DNA from: Promethearchaeota archaeon
GTDB lineage: Archaea; Asgardarchaeota; Lokiarchaeia; Sigyniarchaeales; SOKP01
Direction: 5' to 3'
DNA length: 28,848 nt
Assembly (NCBI GenBank): GCA_016839765.1
Contig: JAEOTP010000091.1
Location: forward strand, 1 to 28,848
Shown here: positions 7,635 to 28,021 of the stretch, piece by piece
Numbering within the stretch: position 1 is the stretch's first letter
How the letters are laid out: every line of letters starts with the position of its first letter
Position numbers and translations under genes: made by a program
Notes under the pieces: generated by a model
Told to the model about the DNA's origin: nothing
The model's input: only the letters and a program-made list of their open reading frames with translations
Database searches by the model: none

Positions 7635-9371
7635 TTAAGCGCCCCAAACTTTATCTAACTCTTCATTAGACACATTGAAAACTTCATTAGATGGTGCTAC
7701 TGGCTCTTGTCTCAGAAATTCTGGAAGTCTATCATCAGCAGCAGTAAATCCAGCCGCTTTATTAAAATCTCTTTCAGTTGTTATTACTTTCATTCCTAGC
7801 TCGGTTAAATCTACTTCTGTACCAAGAACTCCATTTACAGATTGTATCATTCCTTCTAACCCTTCGGGAATATCAAGAACGGCGAAGGCAGTAAAAAGAC
7901 AATATCCTGTGGAATCAAGGTAAGCTGTGGCTACCTGTAGATTTCTAGACAATTCAGACTTATTTGTATCTCTTGGGTCAGCTGTTCCACCAACACCCAT
8001 AATTTCTGTGGCGATCGCATAACCTGCTGTGTGATCTGCTCCCATTGGGGTTGTTGCATATGTAACTCCAATCCCTTTTATTGCTCTTGGATCATAAGCA
8101 GGGAATGCTTGACCCTTGACTACCGGCACTCTAGTAACTCCGAATGCCTGACCTGTGAAAGCACAACCATTGGCTAAAATTCTCCCAGTCGGGGTTTTCT
8201 TGCGAATTTCATCCATTACTTTTAAGGCACCTTTACCATCTCCAAATTTTAGCATGCCTCCTTCCATTGCCACAGCAATAGTATCTCCTGCTTCAATTGT
8301 ATCCAATCCAAGATCATTACAAGCACGATTCAGCTCACCTATATCATCAAGATTATAAATGCTACAGTTAGCTCCTAAAGCCCATACAGATTCATACTCA
8401 AGTACACCAACAGGATCCTTTCCACCAGGTTTAGTCCATACTTCTGAGCATCGAATTACACAACCAGGATTACAATGATGAGGTCTTGTACCACCTCTTA
8501 TTTTAATTTCCTCAGCTTTCTTTTCACCAGAAATATTAGCAGCTCTATCATCTTGACCGCTAGAGAAATTTCTTTGAGGTAATCCTCCAGCTTCATTTAT
8601 TATATTAACCAAAACAGCAGTACCATAAGAAGCTAATGCACCATCTGGTTTTGTGACGTCATGTTCTGCAAGTGCTTTTCTTAATTTTTCTCTACCTTGA
8701 TCAAAGAGTTCTTTATTCTTGATCTCAACTCCAGGAGCTCCAGTATCATCAACAACTATAAACTTCAAACCCTTTGATGCCATAACTGCACCAAGACCAC
8801 CTCTTCCTGCGTACCTACTTGGCAAACCTTCAGGATCATTAAAACAGATTCCTGAAGCAGCACCCATTAACTCTCCTGCAATACCACAAGCACAAATACT
8901 TACCCTATTTCCAAATTCTTTAAATAAATCTTTATACACTTGATATAATCCTTTTCCAACATATTTATTAGCATTAATGAATTCAACTTTATCCATAGAA
9001 ATTTTAACCATATGATAATCATCACCTTTAGGCTGACCCTCTACAATAATAGCTGCTATTTGCATTCTGGCTAATCTCTGTGGAAAATCTGTTCCAGCAT
9101 TGGCTTCCTTTATCCCTCCCGTTAAGGGGGATTTCCCTCCAACTGAAATTCTTCCGGAAGTTGGGGCTACAGTACCAGTAATTATCCCTGGTGCAAATAC
9201 TAATTTATTATTAGGACCGAGCGGATGACATGTAGGATCAACTTCTTTAGAAACTATAGTTGAAGTTAATGCTCGACCACCTAAAGTAGCATAACTATCT
9301 GGAAAATCTTCAAATGAAGTTTCAAGCTTACTCATATTAACTCTTAAAATTCTTTTTGGCAAAAATTTCAC
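7635..9371 (-). CDS. aor: Tungsten-dependent aldehyde:ferredoxin oxidoreductase family protein
   Basis: KSPLTGGIKEANAG, AGRGGLGAVMASKGLK, Fe-S cysteines CNPGCVIRC, EYES, LGLDTIE, YDPR, GADH, DSTGYC, DDRLP. GTG start. Confidence 0.95.
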   Translation of the reverse strand: MKFLPKRILRVNMSKLETSFEDFPDSYATLGGRALTSTIVSKEVDPTCHPLGPNNKLVFAPGIITGTVAPTSGRISVGGKSPLTGGIKEANAGTDFPQRLARMQIAAIIVEGQPKGDDYHMVKISMDKVEFINANKYVGKGLYQVYKDLFKEFGNRVSICACGIAGELMGAASGICFNDPEGLPSRYAGRGGLGAVMASKGLKFIVVDDTGAPGVEIKNKELFDQGREKLRKALAEHDVTKPDGALASYGTAVLVNIINEAGGLPQRNFSSGQDDRAANISGEKKAEEIKIRGGTRPHHCNPGCVIRCSEVWTKPGGKDPVGVLEYESVWALGANCSIYNLDDIGELNRACNDLGLDTIEAGDTIAVAMEGGMLKFGDGKGALKVMDEIRKKTPTGRILANGCAFTGQAFGVTRVPVVKGQAFPAYDPRAIKGIGVTYATTPMGADHTAGYAIATEIMGVGGTADPRDTNKSELSRNLQVATAYLDSTGYCLFTAFAVLDIPEGLEGMIQSVNGVLGTEVDLTELGMKVITTERDFNKAAGFTAADDRLPEFLRQEPVAPSNEVFNVSNEELDKVWGA

Positions 9372-12887: not shown

Positions 12888-13151
12888 ATGGAAAGAAGAC
12901 CAAATAGACCTATTGACTATTTGAAAAATTCGGTGAATAGAGTTATTTTAATTAAAGTGAAGCGAAACCGTCTTTTTCGTGGTTTGCTTCAAGGGTTCGA
13001 TGAACACCTTAATCTTTACTTAGAAGGCACAAGTCAAATTTTTGAATATCAAGATGAAGACGGTAACATACGAGAGGAACATGAAGACTTAGGGAGCATA
13101 GTTGTACGTGGTGATAACGTGATCTTCGTCAATTTAGCGAATGAAGAATAA
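12888..13151 (+). CDS. Sm-like archaeal protein (SmAP/LSm)
   Basis: RPIDYL N-terminal helix, Sm1 motif GLLQGFDEHLNLYL, Sm2 motif IVVRGDNVIFV. Confidence 0.95.
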   Translation: MERRPNRPIDYLKNSVNRVILIKVKRNRLFRGLLQGFDEHLNLYLEGTSQIFEYQDEDGNIREEHEDLGSIVVRGDNVIFVNLANEE

Positions 13152-13303
13152 AAAACCATTGATATTTGAAAAAATATTTCTAATCTAAAGTAAACTTATC
13201 TTAATTCTTCAATTAAAGGAGTTCAAAATAAAAGTTTTTTAAGTTTCAATACTTTTAATATGAAGAGGCTTTAATTCAAGATAAATTTAAAAAAATTTGA
13301 TGA

Positions 13304-15415
13304 ATGACAATGGAACAAGCTCTATTAATTAACCCAAACTTGGGACATCCATTAATTCTAAATATTGATCGAAGATTAAAAAACAAGGAATTTCGTACAG
13401 AGATATTATTTGTGAGTAATATCTCTGATCCTAGAAATTTTGAGAAATTTATAAGGCATAAAATAGAACTCGTTCCAATTCTTGAATATAAGTGGAAATT
13501 AAAGAAATTACTTGAACAAGAAAAGAAGAAACGAATAGTAAAGATTGAAAAGGAAGAGAAAAAAGGTTTCTGGAAGAGATTAAAAGAGAAGATCTTTAGG
13601 AAGAAAAAAACAAAGGAAGCTGCTAGAACAGATATTAGGTATAAAATAACTGATTCGAAAGGAGAAGAATTTGACATTGTTAGCAAAAAAAAAATTGATA
13701 AACTAAAGCATCGTGTATTTCGAGGAGATGTAATTCAAGCTACTGTAATGAATGTAAAAAAAGTCTCTCCAATAGCAATAGATAACCTAAACTATGAAAA
13801 TTATTGTAGTCCCCAACCCTATTTAATAAAATACAAAATCTTTAACAATTTAACAGAGTTTTATAAGGTAAGTATTGATTTCTCTCTAAGTGAGGAAACA
13901 TTAGACTTTTTAAAAATTCGCACTTTTCTAATGTTTGATATTGTCCATGAAAAATCTCTTGAAGGGAAGCGAATTAATCATCATTCATTAGTAATTTCTA
14001 AAAATAATTGGAGAAATCTTAAATTTGTCCATGCTACAGACTTACATTTAGCAGAACGTAATGATAGAATTTATGGAATTGTGAAAGATTGGCTCTCAGT
14101 TTTTCAGCAGGAGAAAATGGTTCAATTTGCTCAACAAGGATTGAGAACTCTTTCTTTTTTTGGACGTTTGTTTAAAAAAAAAGAATCATCTAAACCTATA
14201 ACATTAAAACCACTAAGTAAACGATTTATTAATCCTAATAATAATTTTAGGAAATTCATAAAGGAAATGAATAAAAGAGTTTTAAATAATCAATTAGATT
14301 TCATAGTTTTAACAGGGGATTTAGTGGATTTTGTTATATTCTCTAAATTGCGAAGAGATATAAGAAAAGCTTTAAATTTTGATTATGAATATAGTAATTG
14401 GAAGATATTCAAAGAAATAATTTTAAATCTACCTCAAAAAAAAAGGAGAGGGATGCTTAAAGGACAGGAACTAATCTGTCCGATTTTTACTATACCTGGA
14501 AATCACGATTTTCGACCATATCACTATGATCTGCGATGGGGAGGGTTGTATAGAAAAATTGGTTTAAATGCTGATGAAGCTATAGCTTTAAATGAAAAAT
14601 TTTTAGTTAATCCCATAAGTTCAATTACCAAAAGCTTTATGGCATTAAAGGGATATTTATCAGAATTTAATCCTTCATTAAATTATTCAATTAAATTTGG
14701 AGCACATCAGTTTATATTTTTAAATTCAGGTTCCGATTCTTTTAAGAATGTACGAGATTTTTTAATGGGACGTCCGTCTGTAACAGGGCTTTCAAATAGA
14801 CAAATAAAATATTTAGAAAATTTGATAAATTTTAAAAAGAGCGATAGTGATAATACATATTTATTTCTACATGGTCCACCAATTAATCCTCGAAAGACTG
14901 CGAGTATTTTTAAAAAGTTTGGTCAGAAAGATATTTTTAAAGAATTTTTAGATAAAGTAGATGAATTTAAAGAATCAGTAATCAAAAAATTGGGTAAAAA
15001 ATTATCGGTTGCTAGAATTGACGGTAAATTTGATGTTAAATTCGGTACAATCTCCTCTAACTGGGAAAGGTTAATTGAATTTTGCAAAGATCATTGTATT
15101 CTTACTCTTACTGGTCACACCCATGAATTAAAAGAATTCAGATTGGGAGACCCAAAAGGAGAAAAGTCAAAAGTATTTACAGCTCCTCCCTTTAGCTTGA
15201 AAAAATTAGAAAATCCTGCCGCTGTATATTATGATCTTTATTCAGAATTATATACAAATGCTAAAGAAATTACTCAAAATGCACCATTTGTCGTACAAAC
15301 TCCTGCATTAGGATTAGGAGGCTACCGTAACCCTAAATTAGCAGGTTGTTATCGTGAAATAGAAATAAGAAAAAACAGATTAACATCCTTCAAAGTAAAG
15401 TTTTTAAGGCGCTAA
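13304..15415 (+). CDS. Large calcineurin-like metallophosphoesterase with N-terminal extension
   Basis: All five motifs present: TDLHL, TGDLVD, PGNHD, FLHGP, TGHTH. Lys-rich. No signal peptide. Confidence 0.88.
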   Translation: MTMEQALLINPNLGHPLILNIDRRLKNKEFRTEILFVSNISDPRNFEKFIRHKIELVPILEYKWKLKKLLEQEKKKRIVKIEKEEKKGFWKRLKEKIFRKKKTKEAARTDIRYKITDSKGEEFDIVSKKKIDKLKHRVFRGDVIQATVMNVKKVSPIAIDNLNYENYCSPQPYLIKYKIFNNLTEFYKVSIDFSLSEETLDFLKIRTFLMFDIVHEKSLEGKRINHHSLVISKNNWRNLKFVHATDLHLAERNDRIYGIVKDWLSVFQQEKMVQFAQQGLRTLSFFGRLFKKKESSKPITLKPLSKRFINPNNNFRKFIKEMNKRVLNNQLDFIVLTGDLVDFVIFSKLRRDIRKALNFDYEYSNWKIFKEIILNLPQKKRRGMLKGQELICPIFTIPGNHDFRPYHYDLRWGGLYRKIGLNADEAIALNEKFLVNPISSITKSFMALKGYLSEFNPSLNYSIKFGAHQFIFLNSGSDSFKNVRDFLMGRPSVTGLSNRQIKYLENLINFKKSDSDNTYLFLHGPPINPRKTASIFKKFGQKDIFKEFLDKVDEFKESVIKKLGKKLSVARIDGKFDVKFGTISSNWERLIEFCKDHCILTLTGHTHELKEFRLGDPKGEKSKVFTAPPFSLKKLENPAAVYYDLYSELYTNAKEITQNAPFVVQTPALGLGGYRNPKLAGCYREIEIRKNRLTSFKVKFLRR

Positions 15416-15510
15416 ATTCAACCTAAAAGACTTTGACATTAATTAACTTTATATGTTTGGTATTTGACAAAATAAAAAGAAAATGTAATGTGAATGTTAG
15501 AAATTCAATC

Positions 15511-16998
15511 TTAATGAAATGAAGGTCTTCCCTTCTTATGTATTGCCATCCCAAATACATCTTCAGCTGCTTCTAAAACCATCTCTGAAATAGTAGGATG
15601 ACTATGTATAGTTTCCCCTACATCATGCACAGTTAAACCATGCTGCATAGCTAGAGCGATTTCAGAAATCAACTCAGGAGCTTCTGCTCCGATACATGAA
15701 GCCCCAATTATCTTATGACTCTTCTTATCGGCCAAAATCATAAGAAATCCAGTTTCATTTCCCGCACACTTCGCTTTACCTAATGACATAAATGGAAACC
15801 TTCCCATTGCAACCTCGATTTCTAGAGCTTTTGCTTGGTTTCTTCTTAATCCTACAGATCCAATATTAGGATTTGTAAAAATTGTCGCTGGTATTACATT
15901 ATAATCTGTTGTCCTTTCCTTGACCGGAAAGTTACCAATACTAGCTAGTGCATTAGCAACTGCAATATCTCCCATATAACTTGCAACATGAGCTAACATT
16001 GGAGCTCCTGAAGCTGCAACATCACCAATTGCATAAATGCCTTTCACATTAGTTTCGGTTGTTTTAGCATCAATCTTAATCGCTCCTCTTTCTGTTACAA
16101 TTCCAAGTTCTTCAAGCCCAAGGTTTTTAGATTCTCTTGCTCGACCTATTGACACTAAACAATAATCGGCTTCATAGTAAAATTTTTCAGCACTTTCCAC
16201 TTGATCTCTTGGAACATCTGCGGAACATGTAGTTGCTTTTACTCCCGACACAGTATTTTCTACCGATAACACATTTTGAGATACATGTAATTCTATCCCT
16301 AAACTAGTTATTTTCTTTTGTAGTTCTTTTATAATTAATGTTTCCTCTGTAGCTATCGGTGTTGGGAGATACTCTAACATAAGAACTTTAGAGCCAAAGG
16401 TTGCGAAAATATTTGCAAACTCGCATCCAATAACTCCAGCACCGATAATGAGCAAACGTTCAGGAACAGTTTTAAAATTAGGATCAAGTATGTCATCACT
16501 AGTTAAAATTCTATCATGATCGATATTAAAGGCTGGAATCATAGCAGGGGAAGAACCGGTAGCAATTATTACTCTTTTTGTTTTAATATTATTCATCTCA
16601 ACCCCTTCTATTGAAATTTCAAAACCATCATTTACATTTCCCCCAATTATTTTTCCATGACCAAAATAAACATCGTTTTTCCAAGCTTTTTCCAAAGCAC
16701 CTATACCTTGTACAAGTTCTTCTACAACTTTATTTTTTCTCTCAACAGCTTTTGCAAAATCTAATTTAAGTTCGCAAGAAACTCCAAATTCTTCTCCATT
16801 TTTCGTTATTTTATGTATCAAATCTGCTGATGCGTATAGAGCTTTTGTTGGAATGCAACCCCAATTCAAACAAGTTCCTCCTAGTTTTGCTCTCTCAATT
16901 AAAGCTACCTTCGCTCCGAATTGAGCAGCTCTAATTGCTGAATGATATCCTCCAGGACCAGCACCAATAACTACCAGATCATATTGTTGTTCAGACAT
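15511..16998 (-). CDS. lpdA: Dihydrolipoamide dehydrogenase
   Basis: GAGPGGY FAD site, GGTCLNWGCIPTK disulfide, GAGVIGCEFA NAD site, MLAHVA, HPTISE. Confidence 0.93.
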   Translation of the reverse strand: MSEQQYDLVVIGAGPGGYHSAIRAAQFGAKVALIERAKLGGTCLNWGCIPTKALYASADLIHKITKNGEEFGVSCELKLDFAKAVERKNKVVEELVQGIGALEKAWKNDVYFGHGKIIGGNVNDGFEISIEGVEMNNIKTKRVIIATGSSPAMIPAFNIDHDRILTSDDILDPNFKTVPERLLIIGAGVIGCEFANIFATFGSKVLMLEYLPTPIATEETLIIKELQKKITSLGIELHVSQNVLSVENTVSGVKATTCSADVPRDQVESAEKFYYEADYCLVSIGRARESKNLGLEELGIVTERGAIKIDAKTTETNVKGIYAIGDVAASGAPMLAHVASYMGDIAVANALASIGNFPVKERTTDYNVIPATIFTNPNIGSVGLRRNQAKALEIEVAMGRFPFMSLGKAKCAGNETGFLMILADKKSHKIIGASCIGAEAPELISEIALAMQHGLTVHDVGETIHSHPTISEMVLEAAEDVFGMAIHKKGRPSFH

Positions 16999-17224
16999 AA
17001 TAACTTTAATGTTTTTTTATAAAAGAAGTTGAATAAGTAAATAAATCAAAAAATATTAAATTTATTAAATAAAGATTTATTGCTAAACGATCAAATAGAA
17101 TAAAACCAGTTAAGCTTTTTATTGAAATCGTTAAAGAATGAATAAGGAATGATAGAACTCAATTATTATTTAAATAAATTTATGATTAAAATTTTACACT
17201 AATAACTTCTACAAGAGTAAGATT

Positions 17225-18634
17225 ATGTTTGTTAAGAATACTTCTCAACTACTTTCTGTAAATAGTTATAAATCACAGAAATTCTTAAGAGAAATCGGAT
17301 TAAATTGCCTTGAAAAAGCTTTAAGTGTAGTTAAACCAGAAAACTTAATAAGAAAATCAATTAAAATCCAGGATGGTAAATTAATCATTAAGGATGATGT
17401 TTTTGATTTAAAGGAATATAATAAAATATACATTATCGGTGGAGGTAAAGCTTCGGCAGAAATGGCCTATACTTTAGAAGAAATTATGCTTAATTCACCC
17501 ATTAATTATGAAGGAATAATAAACGTTCCCGAAGGCTTAGAAATAAAACAATCTGAGACTACAAAAAAAATAGAGCTAAATTTTGCCACACATCCTCTTC
17601 CCAATGAAAACGGTGTGAATGGAATCAAAAAAATGTTAGAAATTATTAAGAGATCTTCTAAAAAAGACTTAATTATTTGTTTAATTTCTGGTGGAGGATC
17701 AGCACTTTTACCTTTACCAAAAAATGGTATTACTTTAAGAGATTTGCAACAAACCAATGCATTATTATTAAGATCAAGTGTATCTATACATGAAATAAAT
17801 GCTGTAAGAAAACATTTATCTGATTTTAAAGGAGGCAACCTCGCTAAGATAATATTCAACTACAGTAGAGCTACTTTAATTTCACTAATAATATCAGATG
17901 TTGTTGGTGATGATTTAGATTCTATAGCTTCTGGTCCAACCGTACCTGATAAGAGCACGTTTAAAGATACTGTAGAAATATTAAAAAAATATAATCTTTA
18001 TCAAAAAGTTCCAGATTCAGTAAGGAAAATATTGGATAAAGGACTCTTTAATAAAAATCTAGAAAATCCAAAACCTAATGATATTTGCTTTACTAATGTT
18101 CATAATTATTTAATTGGAAGTGTGAAATTAGCTATTACTGAAGTAATCGCATATCTTAAAAATGAATTTCTTACTAATTACTTCTCTGATAAGATCACTG
18201 GGGATGCAAATGATTTTGGAAGGAAACTTTACCACATCATATCTCAAGAAATAAAAAAATATAAAAATATAAAAAAGGGGATCTTATTAATTGGTTCTGG
18301 TGAACTTACGGTATCCATTAAAGGAGACGGTATTGGAGGGAGAAATCAGCAAGCACTGTTAGCTTTTCTTGATTTTATAAGAAATAAAGAGATTAATTAT
18401 AAGTTTCTGATCATTGGAGCTAATCTTGACGGTATAGAGGGAAATAGTCATGCAATGGGTGCATTAATAGATAATTTTACGTTAGAAGAAATGATTAATA
18501 AAAAACTAAACTCAAAGAAGTATTTAGTTAATAATGATTCAAATTCACTCTTTAAAATTCTCAAATCTGAGATAATTACTGGCCTAACCGGAGCAAACGT
18601 TAATGATTTAATCATGGTTTTACTTTTAATTTAA
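17225..18634 (+). CDS. Glycerate 2-kinase (MOFRL family)
   Basis: IGGGKAS, HPLP, LISGGGSAL, INAVRKHLSDFKGG, ISDVVGDDLDSIASGPT, GELTV, GGRNQ, TGLTGANVNDL. Confidence 0.93.
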   Translation: MFVKNTSQLLSVNSYKSQKFLREIGLNCLEKALSVVKPENLIRKSIKIQDGKLIIKDDVFDLKEYNKIYIIGGGKASAEMAYTLEEIMLNSPINYEGIINVPEGLEIKQSETTKKIELNFATHPLPNENGVNGIKKMLEIIKRSSKKDLIICLISGGGSALLPLPKNGITLRDLQQTNALLLRSSVSIHEINAVRKHLSDFKGGNLAKIIFNYSRATLISLIISDVVGDDLDSIASGPTVPDKSTFKDTVEILKKYNLYQKVPDSVRKILDKGLFNKNLENPKPNDICFTNVHNYLIGSVKLAITEVIAYLKNEFLTNYFSDKITGDANDFGRKLYHIISQEIKKYKNIKKGILLIGSGELTVSIKGDGIGGRNQQALLAFLDFIRNKEINYKFLIIGANLDGIEGNSHAMGALIDNFTLEEMINKKLNSKKYLVNNDSNSLFKILKSEIITGLTGANVNDLIMVLLLI

Positions 18635-18671: not shown

Positions 18672-18875
18672 ATGAAAGATAACAAAAAGGATTTGGATAT
18701 TAACGGAATTGGAAATAGTTTAATAAGAACTTGTCCTGTATGTGGCTTTAGTTTTAGAACTTTTGATCCAAAAACGAGGAGAAAAATCTCTCTATGTCCG
18801 ATGTGTGGGCATAAGTTTATAGAACCAGATATTTTACCACATGAAAATGACAAATCGAACAAGATATTTTTTTAG
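18672..18875 (+). CDS. Small zinc-ribbon protein
   Basis: Two knuckles, CPVCG and CPMCG, in 67 aa. Starts 37 nt after the kinase gene. Confidence 0.75.
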   Translation: MKDNKKDLDINGIGNSLIRTCPVCGFSFRTFDPKTRRKISLCPMCGHKFIEPDILPHENDKSNKIFF

Positions 18876-19086
18876 AATATGTTAAGAAATGTTAAGAAAA
18901 TAATAATAACAAGAATAATTAAAAGGATTTTTCAAAGTTGTAATATCACTTTTCGATTTACTTTTTGTTGAAATGAAAAAATATATTTAACTATCGTGTT
19001 TATATTTATTTTACTAATCAATATTTATCAATCCGTAAATAAATTAAGATCAATTAACAAAAAAGTATAAATAAATGTGATTAAGA

Positions 19087-21243
19087 ATGGCACGTAAGAA
19101 AGAAAAGAAAACACGAGCAGAGCCTCGAATGGGTTGGGATGCAACAGAAGTAGATGAATCAAAAGTAGCGGAAGGTTTAAAAAGAACTGAGATGGATGAT
19201 GGAAGAGTTAGATTAGTGGATAGAGATATTTCTACTCCTGTTATTGAAACTTATGATGCGGATACAGGTGAACTTGAAGGTTCAATCCTATTAAAAGATG
19301 GAAATCGTGAGGGTTTATTAGCACTTGTAAAAATCATGGAAGATGTAAATTCAGAGTTAGATCATGATGGTAATATCGAATCCATTAACTTCAAAGGGAA
19401 ATTTAGTGTGGAAAATCCCAGTAAAAATGATAGATTATGGGATATAGATTTAACATTAAAAAATATTGAAAGCACTAATTTAAAAACAAACGAAATAAAA
19501 ATTCGAGAATTAGGCACTGATCCTGATACAAGTGTTGAGGCTGAGGATTTTTTGATTAAAGGGCAAGCTAAAAATCTCTTATTAATCAAAGAATATGTCA
19601 ACACACTCGCTAATGCTGATGATGTGTTAAATATCAGAGATATTGAAGATGATTTAATTAGATTAAAAGATAAAACAGCTAAAGCAGGTTCTGCAGTAAA
19701 AAAATCCAAAGTTGAGCTAGAGGAAGAAGAGGAAGAAGAAGATGAGGAAGATGAGGAAGAAGAGGAAGAGGATAATGATATTTATGATGTTGCTTCTGGA
19801 CGTTCATTACAATCTTTTGGAATTTCCATTGACAAAGAAAACACGGTTACTTTTGCTATTGCTCTAAGAAGTTTATTCGAAAAACCAATCTCTAATGTAA
19901 AAGTCGTAAAAAATATTCCAGATGAATTTACAAATGCTTCAGTCAGAGAAACTACAATGGGAAGGGGGGAAGTCGAAGGAAATAAGGTGATATGGAGAAT
20001 TGAGAAATTACCTCCAGAAACTACAGTTTTATTAAAATGTACATGTAGTATAATGGTTACTGATATTACTAAAAGAAAAACTGGGGTGTTAGAAGTAACT
20101 TATGAAGGATCTTCTTCATTTGCAGGAGGTCTTGCAGTTGATAAATATGACGCTTACACGAGAAATAAATTTTATGTTGACGCAGTTGAAAGGGACGAAG
20201 AACCAGAGATCTGGGATTGTAAACTAGTATTTGAGAATCCTTCTGAGTTTGTAATTCAATTATTTAATGCCGATGTTTATTCTCCTGATGATGAAACCCA
20301 AAAGTATGTAGATATAGATCCAAAAGATGTACCCCTTTTACCTGCAGGAGCACAATGGCATTCTAGAAAATGGAGATATGAATCTGAAGAATATCCTGCA
20401 TTCAGAAAGAAACTTGAATTTAGAGTTATGCCAGATTTTCAGACACTGGTGAATGGCACAATTGCTATATCAGATGTGATTTTAGAAATTGCAAGTATTA
20501 CAGGAGATATGATTTATGATATCACGCAAGTACCTACTTATAAAGAAAAAGATGTAGTTGCTACCTTAAAGATAGTAAATAATGGTTCTGCACCATTAGA
20601 TCAAGTTGTTATTACTCAACAATATTTTACCAATGAATTTCAACCACCCAAAGCTGACGAAATTACAATGATTTGGGATAAGGAGGAACTTGAAGTACCA
20701 TCTGGGGCTGTTAATTTTGATGGTAGTGTGTTTAAACTTCAATTAAAAGACCTGAGAAATTCTGACACAGGGATGTTTAAACCGGATTCAACTTTAGAAT
20801 TCAGATATCCTATTCATTGTGTAAACCCTGTTCAAGATGCAACTTTTGAATCTCAACTTATCTATAATGCTAATACATTCCCAATTTCTCAAGAATTAGA
20901 ATTTATGCCAGAAGTCCCCATAGTTGAAGCTCTGCATTTGAGAAGGAAATTCAGAATCGGAAAAGAAGTTGTACCAATTGGTGACTTAGGAAATTATAGA
21001 ATTGTTTTAATTGTTGAGAATATAGGTACTGCTCCTCTTCAGAATTTAATCTTGATGGATAAAGTACCAGATTCTTTTGAATATGGAACATATAGCGAAA
21101 AACCAGAGATAACAGACGAGGTTGGAGAGGACACACTTAAATGGAGCATAGATTTACTAAGTGCTGGAGAGAAATTAGAAATAACTTATGAAATAAATGG
21201 TTTGGGCGAATACAGTCCCTCAGACGCACAATTAGGATTATAA
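19087..21243 (+). CDS. Cytosolic multi-beta-sandwich protein: putative mu-homology domain (about aa 79-356) with an acidic insert, plus about 3 Ig-like domains
   Basis: 718-aa ORF with no signal peptide or TM segment. By-eye match to AP-mu/delta-COP MHD segments. C-terminal units VNNGSAPLDQVVI and ENIGTAPLQNLILMDKVP...LKWSIDLLSAGE follow a DUF11-like Ig pattern. The ORF is certain, the domain call is inference. Confidence 0.65.
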   Translation: MARKKEKKTRAEPRMGWDATEVDESKVAEGLKRTEMDDGRVRLVDRDISTPVIETYDADTGELEGSILLKDGNREGLLALVKIMEDVNSELDHDGNIESINFKGKFSVENPSKNDRLWDIDLTLKNIESTNLKTNEIKIRELGTDPDTSVEAEDFLIKGQAKNLLLIKEYVNTLANADDVLNIRDIEDDLIRLKDKTAKAGSAVKKSKVELEEEEEEEDEEDEEEEEEDNDIYDVASGRSLQSFGISIDKENTVTFAIALRSLFEKPISNVKVVKNIPDEFTNASVRETTMGRGEVEGNKVIWRIEKLPPETTVLLKCTCSIMVTDITKRKTGVLEVTYEGSSSFAGGLAVDKYDAYTRNKFYVDAVERDEEPEIWDCKLVFENPSEFVIQLFNADVYSPDDETQKYVDIDPKDVPLLPAGAQWHSRKWRYESEEYPAFRKKLEFRVMPDFQTLVNGTIAISDVILEIASITGDMIYDITQVPTYKEKDVVATLKIVNNGSAPLDQVVITQQYFTNEFQPPKADEITMIWDKEELEVPSGAVNFDGSVFKLQLKDLRNSDTGMFKPDSTLEFRYPIHCVNPVQDATFESQLIYNANTFPISQELEFMPEVPIVEALHLRRKFRIGKEVVPIGDLGNYRIVLIVENIGTAPLQNLILMDKVPDSFEYGTYSEKPEITDEVGEDTLKWSIDLLSAGEKLEITYEINGLGEYSPSDAQLGL
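19714..19779 (+). repeat. Low-complexity GAR/GAT run encoding a poly-acidic tract
   Basis: Encodes ELEEEEEEEDEEDEEEEEEDND. Confidence 0.9.
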
Positions 21244-21394
21244 TTTTTTTTTAATTACTCAATTTTTTTTATAATGTTTTTAAGAATATAACCATTAAAT
21301 AGATTTAAAATACCTTAATTTAATTATTATTTTGATATTATATACTTTTATGTTAAATCATACTTCATAATTCTAACTAGCTGAATATTCTAAA

Positions 21395-23074
21395 ATGTCA
21401 TCTTTAAAGAAAAAATTTAATTTAAACTGGATGTTTGAGGCACCCGAAGCAGTTTTAACTTGCTCAACTCTAAAATGTGGTGATGCCTGTTATTTAGTTT
21501 TTGGAGGGCATGATAAGACTTTATACTTGATGAATGAGGAATTGAACATCCTTGATAGCATTAGTTTTGACGGATGGGTACGAACAACCTTTCCAATCGA
21601 TCTTACTGGCGATGGATGCCAAGAAGTTTTAGTAGGTGCTGGAGATGGCAATTTCTTAGTTGTAAAGTTTGTAAAAGGAATCAATAAGTTAGCTGGAATA
21701 ATGAATTTTAAGACTAAGGGTAAAGTTTTATGTGTTACTGCCGGTGATTTCACTAGAGATGGGAATAATGAGTTGATATATGGCGGAGAAGATAAAACAC
21801 TTAAAATTTTTGAGAATATAGATTCAAAAGAACCAAATTCTATACTCTATTATGATTCTTGGGTAACTGCTTGTATATTAGGTTATTTAAAGCTACCAGA
21901 TATAAAAAATCCCATATATGGCCTATTAGTTGGAACTAAAAATGGTTTACTTCAATTAATTCAATCAAAAGACGGTAGACCAGATATAATTTGGCAAAAA
22001 AATTTAGATTCCCAAATAAATACCATGGCAATTGGGGATGTTACAAACGATGGTTATTATGAAATAGTTGTAGGTTCAGATGATTCTTATATCAAGATAC
22101 TCAATAGTGAAGGAGAGAGTTTGAAAGATATAAAACTTGAAGAAGGTCGTCCAATATCATTAAAAATTGTGGATATTGATGAAGATAATGCAAAAGAAAT
22201 TATTGTTGGATCTGCTGATGGATTATTAAGAGTTTATCATAACACAAAATTGAATTCTACAGATATTGAGTTAAAATGGAAGACTTCAACATCAACCTCA
22301 GTTAAAGTAGTATCAACAATGATTGATCCTAAAGAAGGATTAACAAATATAATTTTTGGTGGTTATGATAGAAGTCTTAGATGTGTAGCTGATTTTGAAT
22401 GTGGTGAAAAACCTGTTTTAGATATTCCATATAATATTCTAGTATCTGAAACAAAACCAGAATTAGCAGAGACACCTCCAGAGAAAACCGTCAAATTAGA
22501 AACTGTCCCTACAAACATTAGAGAATTCATATTTAAAGATTTAATAGATAAAAAGATAATTCAGGAGATTGCTCTTGATTTAGAAAAGCGAGGTTATCTT
22601 AAGGATAGAGTTATTGAAGAATTTGAAAGGATGATTACAGAAAAACAAGATCAATTTGAAAAAATAAGCTATTCAGTATGGACACTACCTGAAGATAAAA
22701 TTGGATTAGGGGGTGTTGTTGGAGCTCCTGTTAAAAAACGTAAAAAAATAAAACCTGTGGTAATAGAGCAAGAGACTAAGATGCCAAAAGGAGGAGCTTT
22801 AATTGATGCCTTAACAAAAGAAACTGAAAAAGAAATTGTAGCGCCAAAGAGGACACCACAAGGAACTGTAACTGAGGAAAATTTAAGGACAATAATTATT
22901 CATCACTTAGAAAAAAATAGAATTGTACCATCCAAAACTAAATTAGTAGATGATATAGTTATTTTAGGTTATAATAAGGATTTAGTGGAAAAACAGATTG
23001 AAATTTTGAAAGATGAGGGTATTGTTGCCTATTCTCGGGCTGATCCGAAAGGATGGTATCTAGTGAATTATTAA
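21395..23074 (+). CDS. 7-bladed FG-GAP-like beta-propeller (BBS2/BBS7/ITFG2-like) with C-terminal winged-helix-like repeats
   Basis: Seven hhhG..DG.h.h blades in aa 34-331, four of them with DxxxDG..E-type loops. No signal peptide. C-terminus LVEKQIEILKDEGIVAYSRADPKGWYL follows a wHTH pattern. Confidence 0.75.
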   Translation: MSSLKKKFNLNWMFEAPEAVLTCSTLKCGDACYLVFGGHDKTLYLMNEELNILDSISFDGWVRTTFPIDLTGDGCQEVLVGAGDGNFLVVKFVKGINKLAGIMNFKTKGKVLCVTAGDFTRDGNNELIYGGEDKTLKIFENIDSKEPNSILYYDSWVTACILGYLKLPDIKNPIYGLLVGTKNGLLQLIQSKDGRPDIIWQKNLDSQINTMAIGDVTNDGYYEIVVGSDDSYIKILNSEGESLKDIKLEEGRPISLKIVDIDEDNAKEIIVGSADGLLRVYHNTKLNSTDIELKWKTSTSTSVKVVSTMIDPKEGLTNIIFGGYDRSLRCVADFECGEKPVLDIPYNILVSETKPELAETPPEKTVKLETVPTNIREFIFKDLIDKKIIQEIALDLEKRGYLKDRVIEEFERMITEKQDQFEKISYSVWTLPEDKIGLGGVVGAPVKKRKKIKPVVIEQETKMPKGGALIDALTKETEKEIVAPKRTPQGTVTEENLRTIIIHHLEKNRIVPSKTKLVDDIVILGYNKDLVEKQIEILKDEGIVAYSRADPKGWYLVNY

Positions 23075-23076
23075 AT

Positions 23077-23505
23077 TCAAATAAAAAAGTTTTCAATTTC
23101 TTGTTTAAAAGGTTCAAATTGATTTAATTCAGTAAAATCTCTATTTTGAAATTTTGAAATAAATAATTGTAATAATACTTCAACTTTTTCTAAAAACTTT
23201 TTAACAAATTTATCTGTATCTTTCTTCTTTTTATCCGTTAAGCCATACAGAATAATAGGTTCCTCTGAATTACCATCAGATGTTTTAATTTCAGAAGTCT
23301 TAAAGATAAATAAAGTGTTTTTTGATTCAAGATATTCTAAAGAATGATTATTGAAAGCACTTTCAGCAAAAGTAGTAATCGCTGAAATGAATGCTCCCCT
23401 TAAATCCTTGGTTTTTTCATTTTGCTCTCTCAAATGTCTAAATTTATGTTTTACTAAAACAAAACCTCTAAAGACTATTCCCAATTCATATAATTCTTTC
23501 ATCAT
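23077..23505 (-). CDS. Stand-alone longin-fold protein (AP sigma/TRAPP small subunit-like)
   Basis: 142 aa with a predicted beta-beta-alpha-beta-beta-beta-alpha-alpha order. LRGAFISAITTFAESAF helix and F..F......F..F...I..F tail fit the pattern of Asgard longins. Confidence 0.7.
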   Translation of the reverse strand: MMKELYELGIVFRGFVLVKHKFRHLREQNEKTKDLRGAFISAITTFAESAFNNHSLEYLESKNTLFIFKTSEIKTSDGNSEEPIILYGLTDKKKKDTDKFVKKFLEKVEVLLQLFISKFQNRDFTELNQFEPFKQEIENFFI

Positions 23506-23618: not shown

Positions 23619-24305
23619 TTAAAATACAAATGTATCCCCCACACAGATTTTCCTAAATTGTGAAGGATAAAGCTTGCTTATATTAGTAATATGTCGAGTG
23701 CAATGGCAAGCACCTATAACCTCGATATTTTTTAAATATGAAAATTTATTAAAGCCATGAAATCCCCCGATAATTGCTTTTATTTCTCCTAATTGTTGAC
23801 TCTTCAGAATAAAATGCTCTAAACCTGGATGTGCACAACCAACTAATAGAATTGTTTTCTTCTCTTTAGTTTTTAGAAAGAGTGCTTGTTCCGGTATATA
23901 AGAACTACCAAGTTGACCAGATGAAAAAATATTTTCATCTAGCTCTTTTGTTTCCAAGATACCAACAACGTTCGCTTCAGGGAATGATCTTTTGAAAGAA
24001 CTTGAATTATTGACTGGAACGTAAATTGTTATTTTTGGATTTAGTTGATAAATCGCATTTAATCCCCCAGCATGGTCACTATGGTTATGTGAGATAATAA
24101 TATCTTCTATTTGTGAAATATTTAAGTTAAATTTCTGAATATTATGGAGTAAAACATTTCCATTTCCACCTGTATCAAACAATAGAAATTTATTGGAAAA
24201 AACATTATAAACTAAGGCAGAGAATCCAAATCCAGTTAAAAATCCTGCCTCATTGCATTTATTATCGTATAATATCTTAAGTTCAAATGATGAACTTGAA
24301 TGCAT
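23619..24305 (-). CDS. MBL-fold metallo-hydrolase (COG1237-like)
   Basis: LLFDTG, SHNHSDHAGG, GCAHPG, IIGGFH, CHCT. Confidence 0.9.
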   Translation of the reverse strand: MHSSSSFELKILYDNKCNEAGFLTGFGFSALVYNVFSNKFLLFDTGGNGNVLLHNIQKFNLNISQIEDIIISHNHSDHAGGLNAIYQLNPKITIYVPVNNSSSFKRSFPEANVVGILETKELDENIFSSGQLGSSYIPEQALFLKTKEKKTILLVGCAHPGLEHFILKSQQLGEIKAIIGGFHGFNKFSYLKNIEVIGACHCTRHITNISKLYPSQFRKICVGDTFVF

Positions 24306-24350
24306 ATATTTTGAATAATTATTATAAATTATTAAAAGTTACTTAAACAC

Positions 24351-24838
24351 TTATTTTTGAAGTAATATTGCTTGTTCAGGGCATTTCCCGACGCATATTC
24401 CACAACCGAAACATTGAGTTGGTTTAAATTTTAACTTATTGTTTATCAGTTTTCTAACCCCAAAATAACACCATTTTTCACAAATACCACAATTTTTACA
24501 CTTTTCCAACTTAGTTTTAGCAATAAAATCGCTTTTAATTATTTGTGGATAGCCTAATTTTATAAACTTGCTTAATATGATACAACAGCATGGACAGCAA
24601 TTACAAATCACATAATAATAATGAGGGTTTGGAAAATAAATAATCTGATGTACTAGACCTCTTTTTTTTTTGAATTTGCAGATTTAAATGGAATTTCATA
24701 CAAGGATTTGCAATACCCTAAATGAATGCATGCGTTTACTGGATGATCGCAATTAGGCTCACTTTCATGCTTTCTTTGAGTATCTCTGCAATAACAAGTT
24801 GCAACCCCGATAACATTAGATATCTTAAGTATTTCTGT
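24351..24838 (-). pseudogene. Frameshifted, 5'-truncated 4Fe-4S binding protein
   Basis: The upstream frame reads EILKISNVIGVATCYCRDTQ...CDHPVNACIHLG...KKKEV*. After the A10 run (24671-24662) the -1 frame reads RGLVHQII...ICNCCPCCC followed by two CxxCxxCxxxC motifs. There is no start codon before the upstream in-frame stop. Confidence 0.8.
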
Positions 24839-24953
24839 TTTTATTGTAAAAAGAAAGAAAAATAAATAAATATGTCAAAAACTATTCCAATCGTTAGTAA
24901 TTATAAATAGATCTTAATCGAATTTGTATTTATAATAATAAATATGGATGATT

Positions 24954-25469
24954 ATGAAAGAAACAAAAGAAGAAATTCAAAATAAAGCATTCAAATTGGG
25001 TAAAAAATATGAATGTGAATGTACTGGCTGTGCACAATCAGCTGTTGCAGCGATATTTTAATCACTAGGTATATGGAGTGAAGACGTATTTAAAGCTGCG
25101 AGCGGATTGGCTGATGGATTAGGATTAACGGGCGATGGATCATGTGGAGCCTTAGTGGGTGCATCTATGGTAATAGGTTACCTTTTTGGAAGAACTCATG
25201 AAGATTTTAAAGATATGTACAAACCAATGAAATCTTATAGCTTAGTGAAAAAATTACATGATGAATATCTGGAGAAATATGGATCATGCCGTTGTTATGA
25301 TGTTCAACAAAACTTAATGGGTAGAACTTTTAATCTTTGGAATGAAGATGAATTTAAAGAAGCTTTTAAATTTGGAATGATGAGGTATTCCTCAGATGTG
25401 GTGGGAAATGTTGCAAAATTAGCTACAAAAATCATTTTAAATAGTGGATATAAACCAGAATCAAATTAA
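24954..25469 (+). pseudogene. C_GCAxxG_C_C family redox protein interrupted by an in-frame TAA
   Basis: MKETKEEIQNKAFKLGKKYECECTGCAQSAVAAIF*SLGIWSEDVFKAASGLADG is in frame with the 25107 ORF (SCGALVG, CRC). TAA at 25059-25061. Confidence 0.85.
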
Positions 25470-25483
25470 AGTGAAATGGTTAT

Positions 25484-26002
25484 ATGAAGCAAAAAGATTT
25501 AATGAATCGTTTTAATCAAAAAATCGAAGAATTGGAAAAAATTTTACCAGATTTGAAAAAAGGTGTAAATTGTGCTGAACTTACTCTAACTAATATACTA
25601 GATGTACTTGGAGTAGATAATTATATGTTCCATAATTTAGCAATGCCCCTAGCTGGAGGGTTTGGCGGATATAAATCTAAAAAAGGATGGCAAGGTGCTT
25701 GTGGAGCAGTAGCAGGTGCTTGCGCAGCAATAGGAGTTATTATGGGCGGAAACAAAAAAATGAATGAAAAAACAATGGCAATAGCATATCTAAAAGCATC
25801 TAAATATGCTAAAGACTTTGAAAATGAGTTTGGCTCAGTAATATGTTCAGAACTCTGTGGTTTTGATTTCAGTGATCCAAACGGGTTTATAAAGTATCGA
25901 AAGACTGGAACTTGGAAAAAAAAATGTTATAAATTTGTTGTATGGGCTGTTGATGAAGTCAGAAAAGTTACTCGGAACGATTTAAAAAGAAAATGGAAAT
26001 AA
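25484..26002 (+). CDS. C_GCAxxG_C_C family putative redox protein
   Basis: NCAE, LAGGFG, ACGAVAG, FGSVICSEL, KKC. Confidence 0.9.
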   Translation: MKQKDLMNRFNQKIEELEKILPDLKKGVNCAELTLTNILDVLGVDNYMFHNLAMPLAGGFGGYKSKKGWQGACGAVAGACAAIGVIMGGNKKMNEKTMAIAYLKASKYAKDFENEFGSVICSELCGFDFSDPNGFIKYRKTGTWKKKCYKFVVWAVDEVRKVTRNDLKRKWK

Positions 26003-26055
26003 TTCAAATTTAATTTTTTCTGATTTCTATTACTAATTAAAATTTTAGAAAAAAT

Positions 26056-27273
26056 ATGAATCGAATTAATTTTATTCTCAATCCTAATGCTAGGGATAAT
26101 TCATATAAAAAAACACCAATAAAATTCATTTCTCATGATATTGTTAAACAAGTGAAAAACTTTCATAAGAGTTTTCCATCATATAAAATTACTCCTCTCT
26201 ATAATCTTAATAATCTTGCCAAAAAACTCGGTGTGAATAGATTATGGGTAAAAGATGAATCCTTTAGATTTGGACTTAATGCTTTTAAGGTTTTGGGTGC
26301 CTTATATGCAATTGCAAAGTATCTCAATAAAGAGTTTCGTGAAAGCGTAAGTTTATCTTATGAATTTTTAAAAAAATTAATAAAATATGAGAAAGATTGC
26401 ACATTAACCTTTGTTACTGCTACAGATGGTAATCATGGAAGAGCAGTTGCGTGGTCTGCTAGACAACTTAGCCAAAAGTCAGTAATATTTATGCCTAAGG
26501 GGTCTTCTATATCCAGAATTAAAAACATTAAGAACGAAGGTGCTAAAGTGATAGTGACAGACGTTAATTATGATGAAACTGTAAAAATTGCGAATGATTA
26601 TGCTGATGAGCATGATTTTATCTTAATTCAAGACACAGCATGGGAAGGTTATGAGGAGATTCCTATATGGATAATGCAAGGATATACAACCTTAATTGAT
26701 GAAGTATTAGAGCAGTTAGCAGTCCAAAATGAAGAAAATCCTACCCATGTTTTCCTCCAAGTTGGTGTAGGATCTTTTGCAGGAGCGATTCAAGGATATT
26801 TTTTTTCATTATTTGGCAAGGAAAGACCTATTATTGCTACTTTAGAACCTGATAGTTGTGCTAGTATATTAAAATCCGTTGAAATTGGTGATGGATTGCC
26901 TCATAGTATAGAAGGTGCTTTTAAAACAATCATGGTTGGTCTTGCATGTGGTACCCCTAATCCTATTGCTTGGAGAATATTAAGAGATTATACGGATATT
27001 TTTTTCTCATGTCCAGACTATATCGCTATTAATGGTATGAGAATTCTCGCTAATCCACTTCATGATGATCCTAAAGTGATATCAGGGGAATCTGGAGCCA
27101 TTGGATTAGGTTTGGTTGCATCTATATTCCAAAATGAAATTTATAAGGAAATTATTAACAAATTAGAAATAAACGGAGGCTCTAGACTTTTAGTAATCAG
27201 TACTGAGGGAAATACTGACCCAGAAAATTATAGAAAATTAGTTTATGGAGAGAATTCTTCCACTAAACTTTAA
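26056..27273 (+). CDS. dpaL: Diaminopropionate ammonia-lyase (PLP fold II)
   Basis: KDESFRFGLNAFKVLGA, TATDGNHGRAVAW, QDTAWEGYEEIP, QVGVGS, GLACG, SGESGA, STEG.TDP. Confidence 0.93.
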   Translation: MNRINFILNPNARDNSYKKTPIKFISHDIVKQVKNFHKSFPSYKITPLYNLNNLAKKLGVNRLWVKDESFRFGLNAFKVLGALYAIAKYLNKEFRESVSLSYEFLKKLIKYEKDCTLTFVTATDGNHGRAVAWSARQLSQKSVIFMPKGSSISRIKNIKNEGAKVIVTDVNYDETVKIANDYADEHDFILIQDTAWEGYEEIPIWIMQGYTTLIDEVLEQLAVQNEENPTHVFLQVGVGSFAGAIQGYFFSLFGKERPIIATLEPDSCASILKSVEIGDGLPHSIEGAFKTIMVGLACGTPNPIAWRILRDYTDIFFSCPDYIAINGMRILANPLHDDPKVISGESGAIGLGLVASIFQNEIYKEIINKLEINGGSRLLVISTEGNTDPENYRKLVYGENSSTKL

Positions 27274-27397
27274 ATTAATTTTTAATATGGGTATTTTAAC
27301 CTTATAAATTGGAAATTAAAAGTTTTTAAGTTATTGTAATCTTATTAAAATTATTCTGAAAAAATAATTAATTTACAATAGCATTTTGGTAGTTTCT

Positions 27398-27640
27398 ATG
27401 ACTGAGGAGGAATCTCGTTTTTGTCCTTATTGTGGTGTAAAATTAAAGCATCCATATTGGGTTCATGTTCAAGAAAAACATTCAGAAAAATATGCTCAAA
27501 AAGAAACTTGGATAAAATTATATGAAGATTATAGAAAACTAGGTATGGATCAAGATATCTCATTAACCGTTATCTCAGAATTATTTAATGCTACTATTGA
27601 AGAAGTTAAATCTTTTCTAAAGAATGCCAATGCTTTTTAA
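27398..27640 (+). CDS. Small C2H2-type zinc finger protein with a helical C-terminus
   Basis: CPYC-x10-H-x4-H. The ATG at 27398 is preferred over the TTG at 27386. Confidence 0.75.
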   Translation: MTEEESRFCPYCGVKLKHPYWVHVQEKHSEKYAQKETWIKLYEDYRKLGMDQDISLTVISELFNATIEEVKSFLKNANAF

Positions 27641-27727
27641 AATAATTCCTTTTTAAAACTAGTTGAATAGTATTTAATAAAAATTAAAATAAATATAAAA
27701 AGTGTTAATTTCAAAAAAAGATTTTAA

Positions 27728-28021
27728 CTAAAATTCTTCCTCGTCTTCCTCTAAAAGTCCTGCTTGTTTTAGTAAATCCTCTACTGAATCACGAGCTTTC
27801 ATTACTTGTTCATTATCAGTAAGTTTAAGGTTTTCTAAAACAGAATCAGAAAATTCCATGAATTTTTTAATAGATTGAGACGAAAAATCTTTTAATTTAT
27901 TTGAAGTCTCTTCTATAAAATCCTTACCACTCTCTCCAAAAGCTCCACCAACAAAATCCTTGAAAGCATTATTTAGTTTATCTATAAAAGTTTCTTTCTT
28001 TTCTTCTCCTTCATCACTCAT
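27728..28021 (-). CDS. Hypothetical acidic alpha-helical protein
   Basis: 97-aa ORF filling the intergenic space, with an AGGT SD-like sequence upstream and amphipathic periodicity. Confidence 0.75.
   Translation of the reverse strand: MSDEGEEKKETFIDKLNNAFKDFVGGAFGESGKDFIEETSNKLKDFSSQSIKKFMEFSDSVLENLKLTDNEQVMKARDSVEDLLKQAGLLEEDEEEF

Follow-up and report, generated by a model that had tools for sequence, protein, structure and literature searches.

The window analysed here, a stretch of 28,848 nucleotides from a Promethearchaeota archaeon (assembly GCA_016839765.1, contig JAEOTP010000091.1), contains four neighbouring open reading frames (ORFs) encoding a Zn-ribbon protein, a protein of 718 amino acids (aa) with a mu-homology domain (MHD), a 559-aa propeller protein and a 142-aa longin-like protein. 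An earlier note, made from the sequence alone, suggested that the last three may be an unfused precursor of the longin–MHD medium subunit of eukaryotic adaptors, working with a propeller as a cargo-sorting or scaffold complex. We find instead that the locus is a two-gene module of putative function, made up of the MHD and propeller genes and accompanied by bystanders, and not a trio of proto-adaptor protein (AP) type. The 718-aa protein is a cytoplasmic scaffold of elongated shape, composed of beta-sandwiches and based on a true MHD; its family is near-universal in Asgards.

Linkage of the MHD and propeller genes

In the window's taxonomic family the two genes lie side by side in about 40 genomes. 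In a second family the propeller gene and an MHD gene of the same clade (clade A) are at most about 7 kb apart in 10 of 14 genomes, representing all seven genera and usually in convergent orientation. The other four are two cases at contig ends, one genome without an MHD match and one with the genes unlinked. MHD and propeller genes are neighbours in a third family too, and the linkage outlasts changes of orientation and the presence of intervening genes. Cultured strains are among the linked genomes, namely Lokiarchaeum ossiferum (NEF87_004105 and NEF87_004104), Promethearchaeum syntrophicum (DSAG12_01670) and H. repetitus (MCF2141748.1), and for this reason the function of the pair is directly testable.

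Within the window's family synteny holds for the trio of MHD, propeller and longin, but equally for the entire block around it, which includes glycerate kinase, dihydrolipoamide dehydrogenase and redox genes. The LSM, metallophosphoesterase, dehydrogenase and glycerate kinase genes served as synteny controls, with four adjacencies taken from the same window. Where they were found in closed genomes these genes are hundreds of kb to Mb apart, and the four control adjacencies are broken. Furthermore, clade A MHD and propeller are both absent from eight genomes (89–100% complete) of two genera in the window's family, all of which retain another MHD paralogue. The linkage in the second and third families, the scattered controls and the shared absence together imply that the MHD and propeller genes are a unit, and that the longin gene follows the metabolic block. 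The conserved neighbourhood that the earlier note asked for is real for the MHD–propeller pair, in three families and well beyond background synteny, and for the longin gene it is restricted to the window's family.

Several observations weigh against such a unit. One genome (G141) has the propeller and no clade A MHD that we could find, another (G022) has both genes unlinked, one family (f27) has a clade A MHD without a propeller orthologue, and most Asgards carry an MHD protein without this propeller. The shared absence of two adjacent genes can be the result of one deletion, and the related genomes in the linkage counts are not independent. Nor is the pair an operon, since most second-family loci have the two genes in convergent orientation and, in the window's family, a T-run lies between them. 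This T-run, a caveat already in the earlier note, is real and consists of T9 at 21244–21252 and T8 at 21263–21270; a T-run was seen 3' of the MHD stop codon in 21 of 21 tandem loci examined, and it is a probable archaeal terminator. Our promoter and terminator scan, which used a sigma-70 model unsuited to archaea, gave results at chance level. RNA contigs, obtained from four runs in two studies, cover the MHD gene and only that gene, and the missing cover over the propeller and longin genes carries no weight.

Some features of the proteins follow the linkage. In a tree of 78 family members, made with FastTree only, with 18 near-duplicate loci left out and no eukaryotic rows, the propeller-linked full-length MHD proteins form one clade, bar one divergent paralogue (Shimodaira-Hasegawa support 100). 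The linked proteins keep both a hairpin at the N-terminus and the motif S[DE]AQ at the C-terminus, and unlinked in-paralogues have mostly lost the hairpin. The pattern of sequence conservation makes the N-terminal extension a candidate propeller-binding segment.

The complex was predicted as three chains, two of them from cutting the MHD protein at the acidic loop and the third being the propeller, and scored 0.58 as compared to 0.00 for the best control (runs 0.58, 0.00 and 0.58), with a between-run contact agreement of at least 0% and a partner predicted local distance difference test score (pLDDT) of at least 86. In the calibration, on a set unlike this job, 58 of 80 solved pairs came up to the mark, as did 2 of 110 mismatched ones; of these, only seven solved pairs but both mismatched ones did so at 0.60 or under. 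The prediction lends weak support to a contact between the two proteins, and to that extent an interaction within the locus, as supposed in the earlier note, is predicted.

Structure of the MHD and propeller proteins

The AlphaFold model of the 718-aa protein has a pLDDT of 89.6 and a predicted template-modelling score of 0.78. It shows two beta-sandwich subdomains, with B inserted into A and the chain closing back on A, so that the mu-homology proposed from the sequence is borne out by the topology, against the outcome of generic DUF11 matches alone. Pfam reports DUF11 (2.5e-10) and, over subdomain B only, a sub-threshold Adap_comp_sub match of 24.1 bits against the gathering cut-off of 31.6 (E 2.8e-5). 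When a profile of 134 sequences was compared with the PDB, the first 21 rows were mu3, mu2 and delta-COP chains, the opening MHD strands included. In a wide structural search, independent of Foldseek and covering 48,161 chains, the six best matches were all MHDs, among them mu2 (Z 16.3), mu4 (14.6), mu3A (14.3) and delta-COP (14.2); mu1, SGIP1 and Syp1 were also matched, lower in the search. A Foldseek search with the complete 718-aa model gave mainly unrelated multi-Ig proteins. Residues 74–463 of the model superpose on residues 168–435 of mu2 with Z 17.1 and a root mean square deviation of 3.3–3.7 over 225–228 aligned residues (VIA). The match is spread over such a long segment because two insertions interrupt the MHD, an acidic loop, whose long form is confined to the window's family, and a whole Ig. 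The protein holds a genuine MHD.

The whole two-subdomain nested topology is shared with the AP medium subunits (AP-2 mu2, PDB 5wrk and 7ofp; mu1, mu3A and mu4) and with delta-COP (4o8q), SGIP1 (5awr) and Syp1 (3g9h), at Z 12–17, with about 90% of the mu2 domain aligned and about 11% identity. Unlike the AP medium subunits, the 718-aa protein has three more Igs, one nested ahead of the closing strand and two beyond it, and no N-terminal longin; its N-terminus is modelled as a helix and a beta-hairpin, and no member among the 78 in the tree was flagged by a longin profile. It also differs from mu2 in being acidic overall and in not keeping the YxxPhi pocket. The positions of mu2 D176, W421 and R423 are taken by K82, P449 and F451, as mapped by alignment offsets and, for the last strand, assuming no gap, and they vary within clade A, which makes cargo reading in the manner of AP-2 unlikely for a protein of this sequence.

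The earlier note had also likened the extra Igs to adaptin appendages, and this is not supported. When they were considered as an appendage or GAE domain, there was just an E of 0.26 to the gamma-adaptin ear and no appendage among the fold matches listed; they match DUF11/CLIPPER and pilin-type Igs. Subdomain B of the MHD is homologous to both later Igs (hhalign gives 95–98% among domains B, D and E, which also match DUF11 and pilin Igs), which suggests that the MHD was perhaps built from DUF11/CLIPPER-type repeats. Repeat proteins with Igs of these types are usually exported, whereas the 718-aa protein is cytoplasmic and has its first Igs arranged as an MHD. In a 19-residue hydropathy scan the best values of the four ORFs were 1.51, 1.27, 0.87 and 0.82, and no hydrophobic, signal or membrane segment was found in the Zn-ribbon, MHD, propeller or longin-like ORF, in agreement with what had been noted for the last three.

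The 559-aa protein was described as a 7-blade propeller, which is correct for residues ~6–335, an FG-GAP propeller; the remainder is a linker followed by a helical, winged-helix tail. The likeness to BBS2 and BBS7 stands. Its nearest solved relatives by sequence in the PDB are ITFG2 (E 2.6e-11), BBS2 (5.8e-10) and BBS7 (6e-5), and Pfam Beta-prop_BBS7 matches at 2.9e-23. By shape, BBS2 (Z 34.7) is tied with generic WD40 propellers (CIAO1, Z 34.8). The 7-blade FG-GAP-type propeller is shared with ITFG2 of KICSTOR and with BBS2 and BBS7 of the BBSome; unlike the latter two, the 559-aa protein has the winged-helix tail in place of GAE, platform and helical domains, none of which was found in it, and there is no beta-sandwich beyond residue 335. 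The YSRxxPxGW unit of the tail occurs in 1–4 copies in the orthologues and is missing from some. FG-GAP propellers are common in these genomes, and true orthologues of this one are confined to the window's order.

The lengths, coordinates and spacings of the four ORFs were confirmed, with 151 nt between the MHD and propeller genes and 2 nt between the propeller and longin genes (Table 1).

Table 1. Features of the locus, with positions in the window (residue numbers refer to the encoded protein)
Feature	Position	Strand	Remarks
Glycerate kinase (DUF4147/MOFRL)	17225..18634	+	Synteny control
Zn-ribbon protein, 67 aa, CxxC..CxxC	18672..18875	+	Genuine conserved gene; adjoins the module mainly in two genera and does not track it
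MHD and multi-Ig protein, 718 aa	19087..21243	+	Cytoplasmic; belongs to clade A within a near pan-Asgard family; core member of the module
N-terminal extension, residues ~14–75	19126..19311	+	TYDxxTGxxEG beta-hairpin; clade A feature
Mu-homology domain, residues 74–463	19306..20475	+	Subdomain A 77–172 and closing strand 449–461; subdomain B 245–357
Insert between subdomains A and B, residues ~176–243	19612..19815	+	Acidic, mostly disordered (from model and sequence)
Extra Ig sandwich, residues 361–447	20167..20427	+	Nested in the MHD just ahead of the closing strand (from model)
Pilin/adhesin (CnaA-like) Ig, residues 467–618	20485..20940	+	Z 14.1 to Sgo0707, 13.9 to BcpA
DUF11/CLIPPER-type Ig, residues 619–718	20941..21240	+	Terminates in the clade A motif S[DE]AQ
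T-runs 3' of the MHD gene	21244..21270	+	Probable archaeal terminator
Propeller protein, 559 aa	21395..23074	+	Second member of the module
C-terminal winged-helix unit, YSRxxPxGW	22874..23071	+	Resembles MCM/RPA C-terminal winged helices (a lead)
Longin-like protein, 142 aa	23077..23505	-	Stand-alone Asgard type; bystander outside the module

Function of the pair

Our preferred explanation, which we put forward tentatively and at slightly less than an even chance, is that the propeller binds a clade-specific end of the MHD protein and that the pair is a protein-binding scaffold. In the window's order, one MHD clade would have gained a dedicated propeller partner with a winged-helix tail, most likely docking on a clade-specific segment of the MHD protein, either the hairpin at its N-terminal end or the S[DE]AQ tail at its C-terminal end. 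In such an adaptor or scaffold the MHD and Ig sandwiches would hold partners and the winged helices would recruit more. It would not work like AP-2, because the tyrosine-motif residues are not kept and no large solenoid subunit or cognate longin accompanies the pair. Around some 100 MHD loci we saw no recurring large alpha-solenoid or sigma-type longin (solenoids elsewhere in the genome were not searched), and GTPase-like genes near them are sporadic. By their defining features the two proteins are not members of AP, COPI or the BBSome, and they may work in an adaptor-scaffold-like manner. The archaeal adaptin-like ESCRT loci (Halo_adaptin and Meth_adaptin; Makarova et al. 2024, 10.1101/2024.02.06.579148) also combine propeller, Ig and winged-helix blocks in one locus, but from what is accessible of that work they use adaptin-appendage Igs together with Vps4 and ESCRT-III, none of which is recognisable near the MHD locus, and no MHD is mentioned there.

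The strongest competitor, in our view unlikely but to be taken seriously, is passive synteny, where the MHD protein works alone as a core scaffold of Asgards and has in the propeller an old neighbour without functional tie. That the pair is not co-transcribed, that the MHD family does without the propeller in most Asgards, and that G141, G022 and f27 are exceptions to the linkage all agree with this. In the second family the propeller also keeps TFB and gelsolin genes close by, so the region is perhaps slow to rearrange. What passive synteny accounts for poorly is that the link outlasts inversions and insertions in three families when control pairs from the same window do not, and that the clade-specific termini track the link.

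It is also conceivable, but quite unlikely, that the MHD protein is a scaffold of the actin cortex that serves protrusions or cell shape and not vesicle sorting. There are four separate contexts in which a gelsolin-like gene lies at 0.1–9 kb from a gene of the MHD family (second-family clade A, the paralogues of the chemotaxis cluster, another paralogue clade and family f15), where roughly one would be expected from 5–6 gelsolin-like ORFs per 3184. The excess is modest and the related genomes are not independent, no gelsolin or actin gene lies near the locus in the window's own genome, and the accessible part of a 2026 paper on crawling motility makes no mention of such proteins.

A role linked to DNA, in which the winged helices touch DNA or the replication or transcription machinery, for instance as a nucleoid tether, is improbable. 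The tail resembles the C-terminal winged helices of MCM and RPA, a TFB gene lies 5' of the propeller in 10 second-family loci, and in Hodarchaeal-type families the MHD gene is found 3' of a gene for an Ig and helix-hairpin-helix protein. However, some linked propellers lack the tail, the similarity is at feature level and a lead, and winged helices of the MCM/RPA type are often protein-binding.

Least probable of all is a proto-AP, COPI or BBSome-like coat of unfused MHD, propeller and longin, with the longin in place of the mu N-terminal domain or of sigma. It is favoured by the true MHD, by the ITFG2/BBS2-type propeller, by the conservation of the trio across the window's family and by another longin-like gene that adjoins an MHD paralogue and the propeller in the third family. 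The 142-aa protein itself likely has a longin fold, as two aligned relatives match Fuz_longin_1 (best 1.2e-6), the same domain is present in 34% of members (at 0.90) in the Atlas row for the protein, and an iterative profile ties it to at least 35 longin-like ORFs in the genome. It has no direct Pfam or PDB profile match, and it showed no significant similarity when compared pairwise with the longin of the third family. Against the coat, at least 35 such ORFs among 3184 make chance adjacency of a longin common, none of 22 aligned longins matched Clat_adaptor_s, and the tyrosine-motif residues are not kept. Furthermore, the longin gene adjoins the module just in the window's family, within the block of metabolic genes, and in three of four inspected genomes without clade A MHD and propeller it lies 0.1–0.7 kb from glycerate kinase; in the fourth, which has no glycerate kinase, it is still beside the dehydrogenase. 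No longin orthologue was detected in the closed genomes of L. ossiferum, P. syntrophicum and H. repetitus, all of which have the pair. The longin was rejected as part of the module on these grounds, the reading of longin plus MHD as an unfused medium subunit fails the phyletic test, and this decoupling has already largely refuted the trio.

The Zn-ribbon gene was likewise considered and rejected, being adjacent mainly in two genera and present elsewhere in genomes without the pair. Another longin-like domain was observed at the C-terminal end of a 750-aa polytopic membrane protein without Pfam hit, encoded near MHD genes in five loci of two distant families (L111:3-2225, L112:2815-5091, L116:11164-13440, L084:12842-15088 and L085:3839-6106); its homologue in the window's genome is on contig C67, away from the locus.

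The MHD family and the genes around it

The MHD family is present in 159 of 201 Asgard genomes, mostly as a single copy outside the window's order. The full core was also found in Marine Group II/Thalassarchaeaceae and in Undinarchaeota, which implies that the family is older or wider than the Asgards, and since it occurs in other archaea it is not an Asgard-restricted eukaryotic signature protein. A Thermoplasmatota-dominated Atlas cluster matches it as well (TM 0.56). The Undinarchaeota form carries an N-terminal hydrophobic segment and another form a signal peptide; these non-Asgard members are L147 and L148 (Undinarchaeota), L145 and L146. Forms of Marine Group II type are proline-rich at the N-terminus and carry Zn ribbons at the C-terminus.

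For the origin of the medium subunit of eukaryotic cargo adaptors, the Asgard evidence in the accessible literature consists of a weak Pfam hit that is called sparse. Close orthologues of the 718-aa protein, for instance in Lokiarchaeales Bin_204, are listed as Adap_comp_sub candidates by Eme et al. 2023 (PMC10307638, Supplementary Table 3), where, as far as that source could be accessed, mu and longin domains were not observed fused and the distribution is described as sparse, from the Pfam hit only. Asgard adaptor homologues are described just as patchy in the accessible part of Kostlbacher et al. 2024. As compared to the candidates of Eme et al., the family is here near-universal, has a full MHD by structure, extends outside the Asgards and has a propeller neighbour. 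The MHD family is already in print; the conserved propeller neighbour was not found in what is accessible of Eme et al. Nothing relevant was found in the literature on the Asgard mu homology domain, AF2028 or the locus tags of the cultured strains. The architecture, the range and the propeller partner of the MHD protein go beyond the published findings that we located.

The fold is complete here, in a family that is close to being a core Asgard gene and is older or wider than the Asgards, and the homology between one subdomain and the protein's own DUF11-type Igs offers a route for the origin of the MHD. It is conceivable, but rather doubtful, that all eukaryotic MHDs go back to an ancestor that arose through the nesting of DUF11/CLIPPER-type Igs and has its living relative in the Asgard family, and that this family forms real adaptor assemblies whose coat-like partners differ between lineages, being a BBS2/ITFG2-type propeller in the Promethearchaeales and HEAT repeats, in fused form, in those of Hodarchaeal type. 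If so, the MHD–propeller pair of cultured Lokiarchaea would be a testable proto-coat subcomplex.

The family varies in its added domains. In Hodarchaeal-type and related families the MHD protein has short N-terminal HEAT repeats (HEAT_2, E 1.7e-7; L086:8789-10960, L087, L092-L095, L097 and L110:2193-4406), a fusion of alpha-solenoid and MHD that is reminiscent of adaptor cores, and one member is named 'HEAT repeat domain-containing protein, Ca. Hodarchaeota'. At the N-terminus many clade A members have an additional alpha/beta domain, about 90 residues long and without significant Pfam match (L031:9612-11825, L033, L035, L036, L099 and L114). One paralogue clade is found within a chemotaxis cluster, directly 3' of cheA (L048:7874-10045, L066:8432-10465 and L105:8423-10441). 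A second paralogue clade, in the second family (L041:8316-10382, L119 and L121), has a C-terminal Zn ribbon resembling a small protein encoded beside gelsolin.

It was also possible to observe recurrent neighbours of MHD genes. A co-oriented gene for an Ig-like protein with several helix-hairpin-helix repeats lies 5' of the MHD gene in three families (L094:6551-7867, L086:11124-12533, L087, L092, L093, L095 and L097), and a conserved metallo-beta-lactamase-fold gene is divergent from it in four families, one of them probably Thorarchaeia (L074-L081, L090, L098 and L108). The gelsolin-like genes lying 0.1–9 kb from MHD-family genes are at L033, L111, L112, L114, L116 and L117; L048, L066 and L105; L106 and L140; and L084 and L085. 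The second-family region usually contains gelsolin, TFB, propeller and MHD genes.

The ordinary neighbours of the locus in the window (12888–17000 and 23619–27273) encode LSM, a metallophosphoesterase, a dihydrolipoamide dehydrogenase-type enzyme, a metallo-beta-lactamase fold, a ferredoxin fragment, two C_GCAxxG redox proteins and a PLP enzyme. Further away are a multi-PAS histidine kinase (3548–6925) and an aldehyde ferredoxin oxidoreductase (7635–9371). At 27386–28021 there is a convergent pair of small genes, one for a protein of 84 aa that bears the motif CxxC..H..H and one for a protein of 97 aa. The pair is kept across the window's family even in the absence of the MHD and propeller genes.

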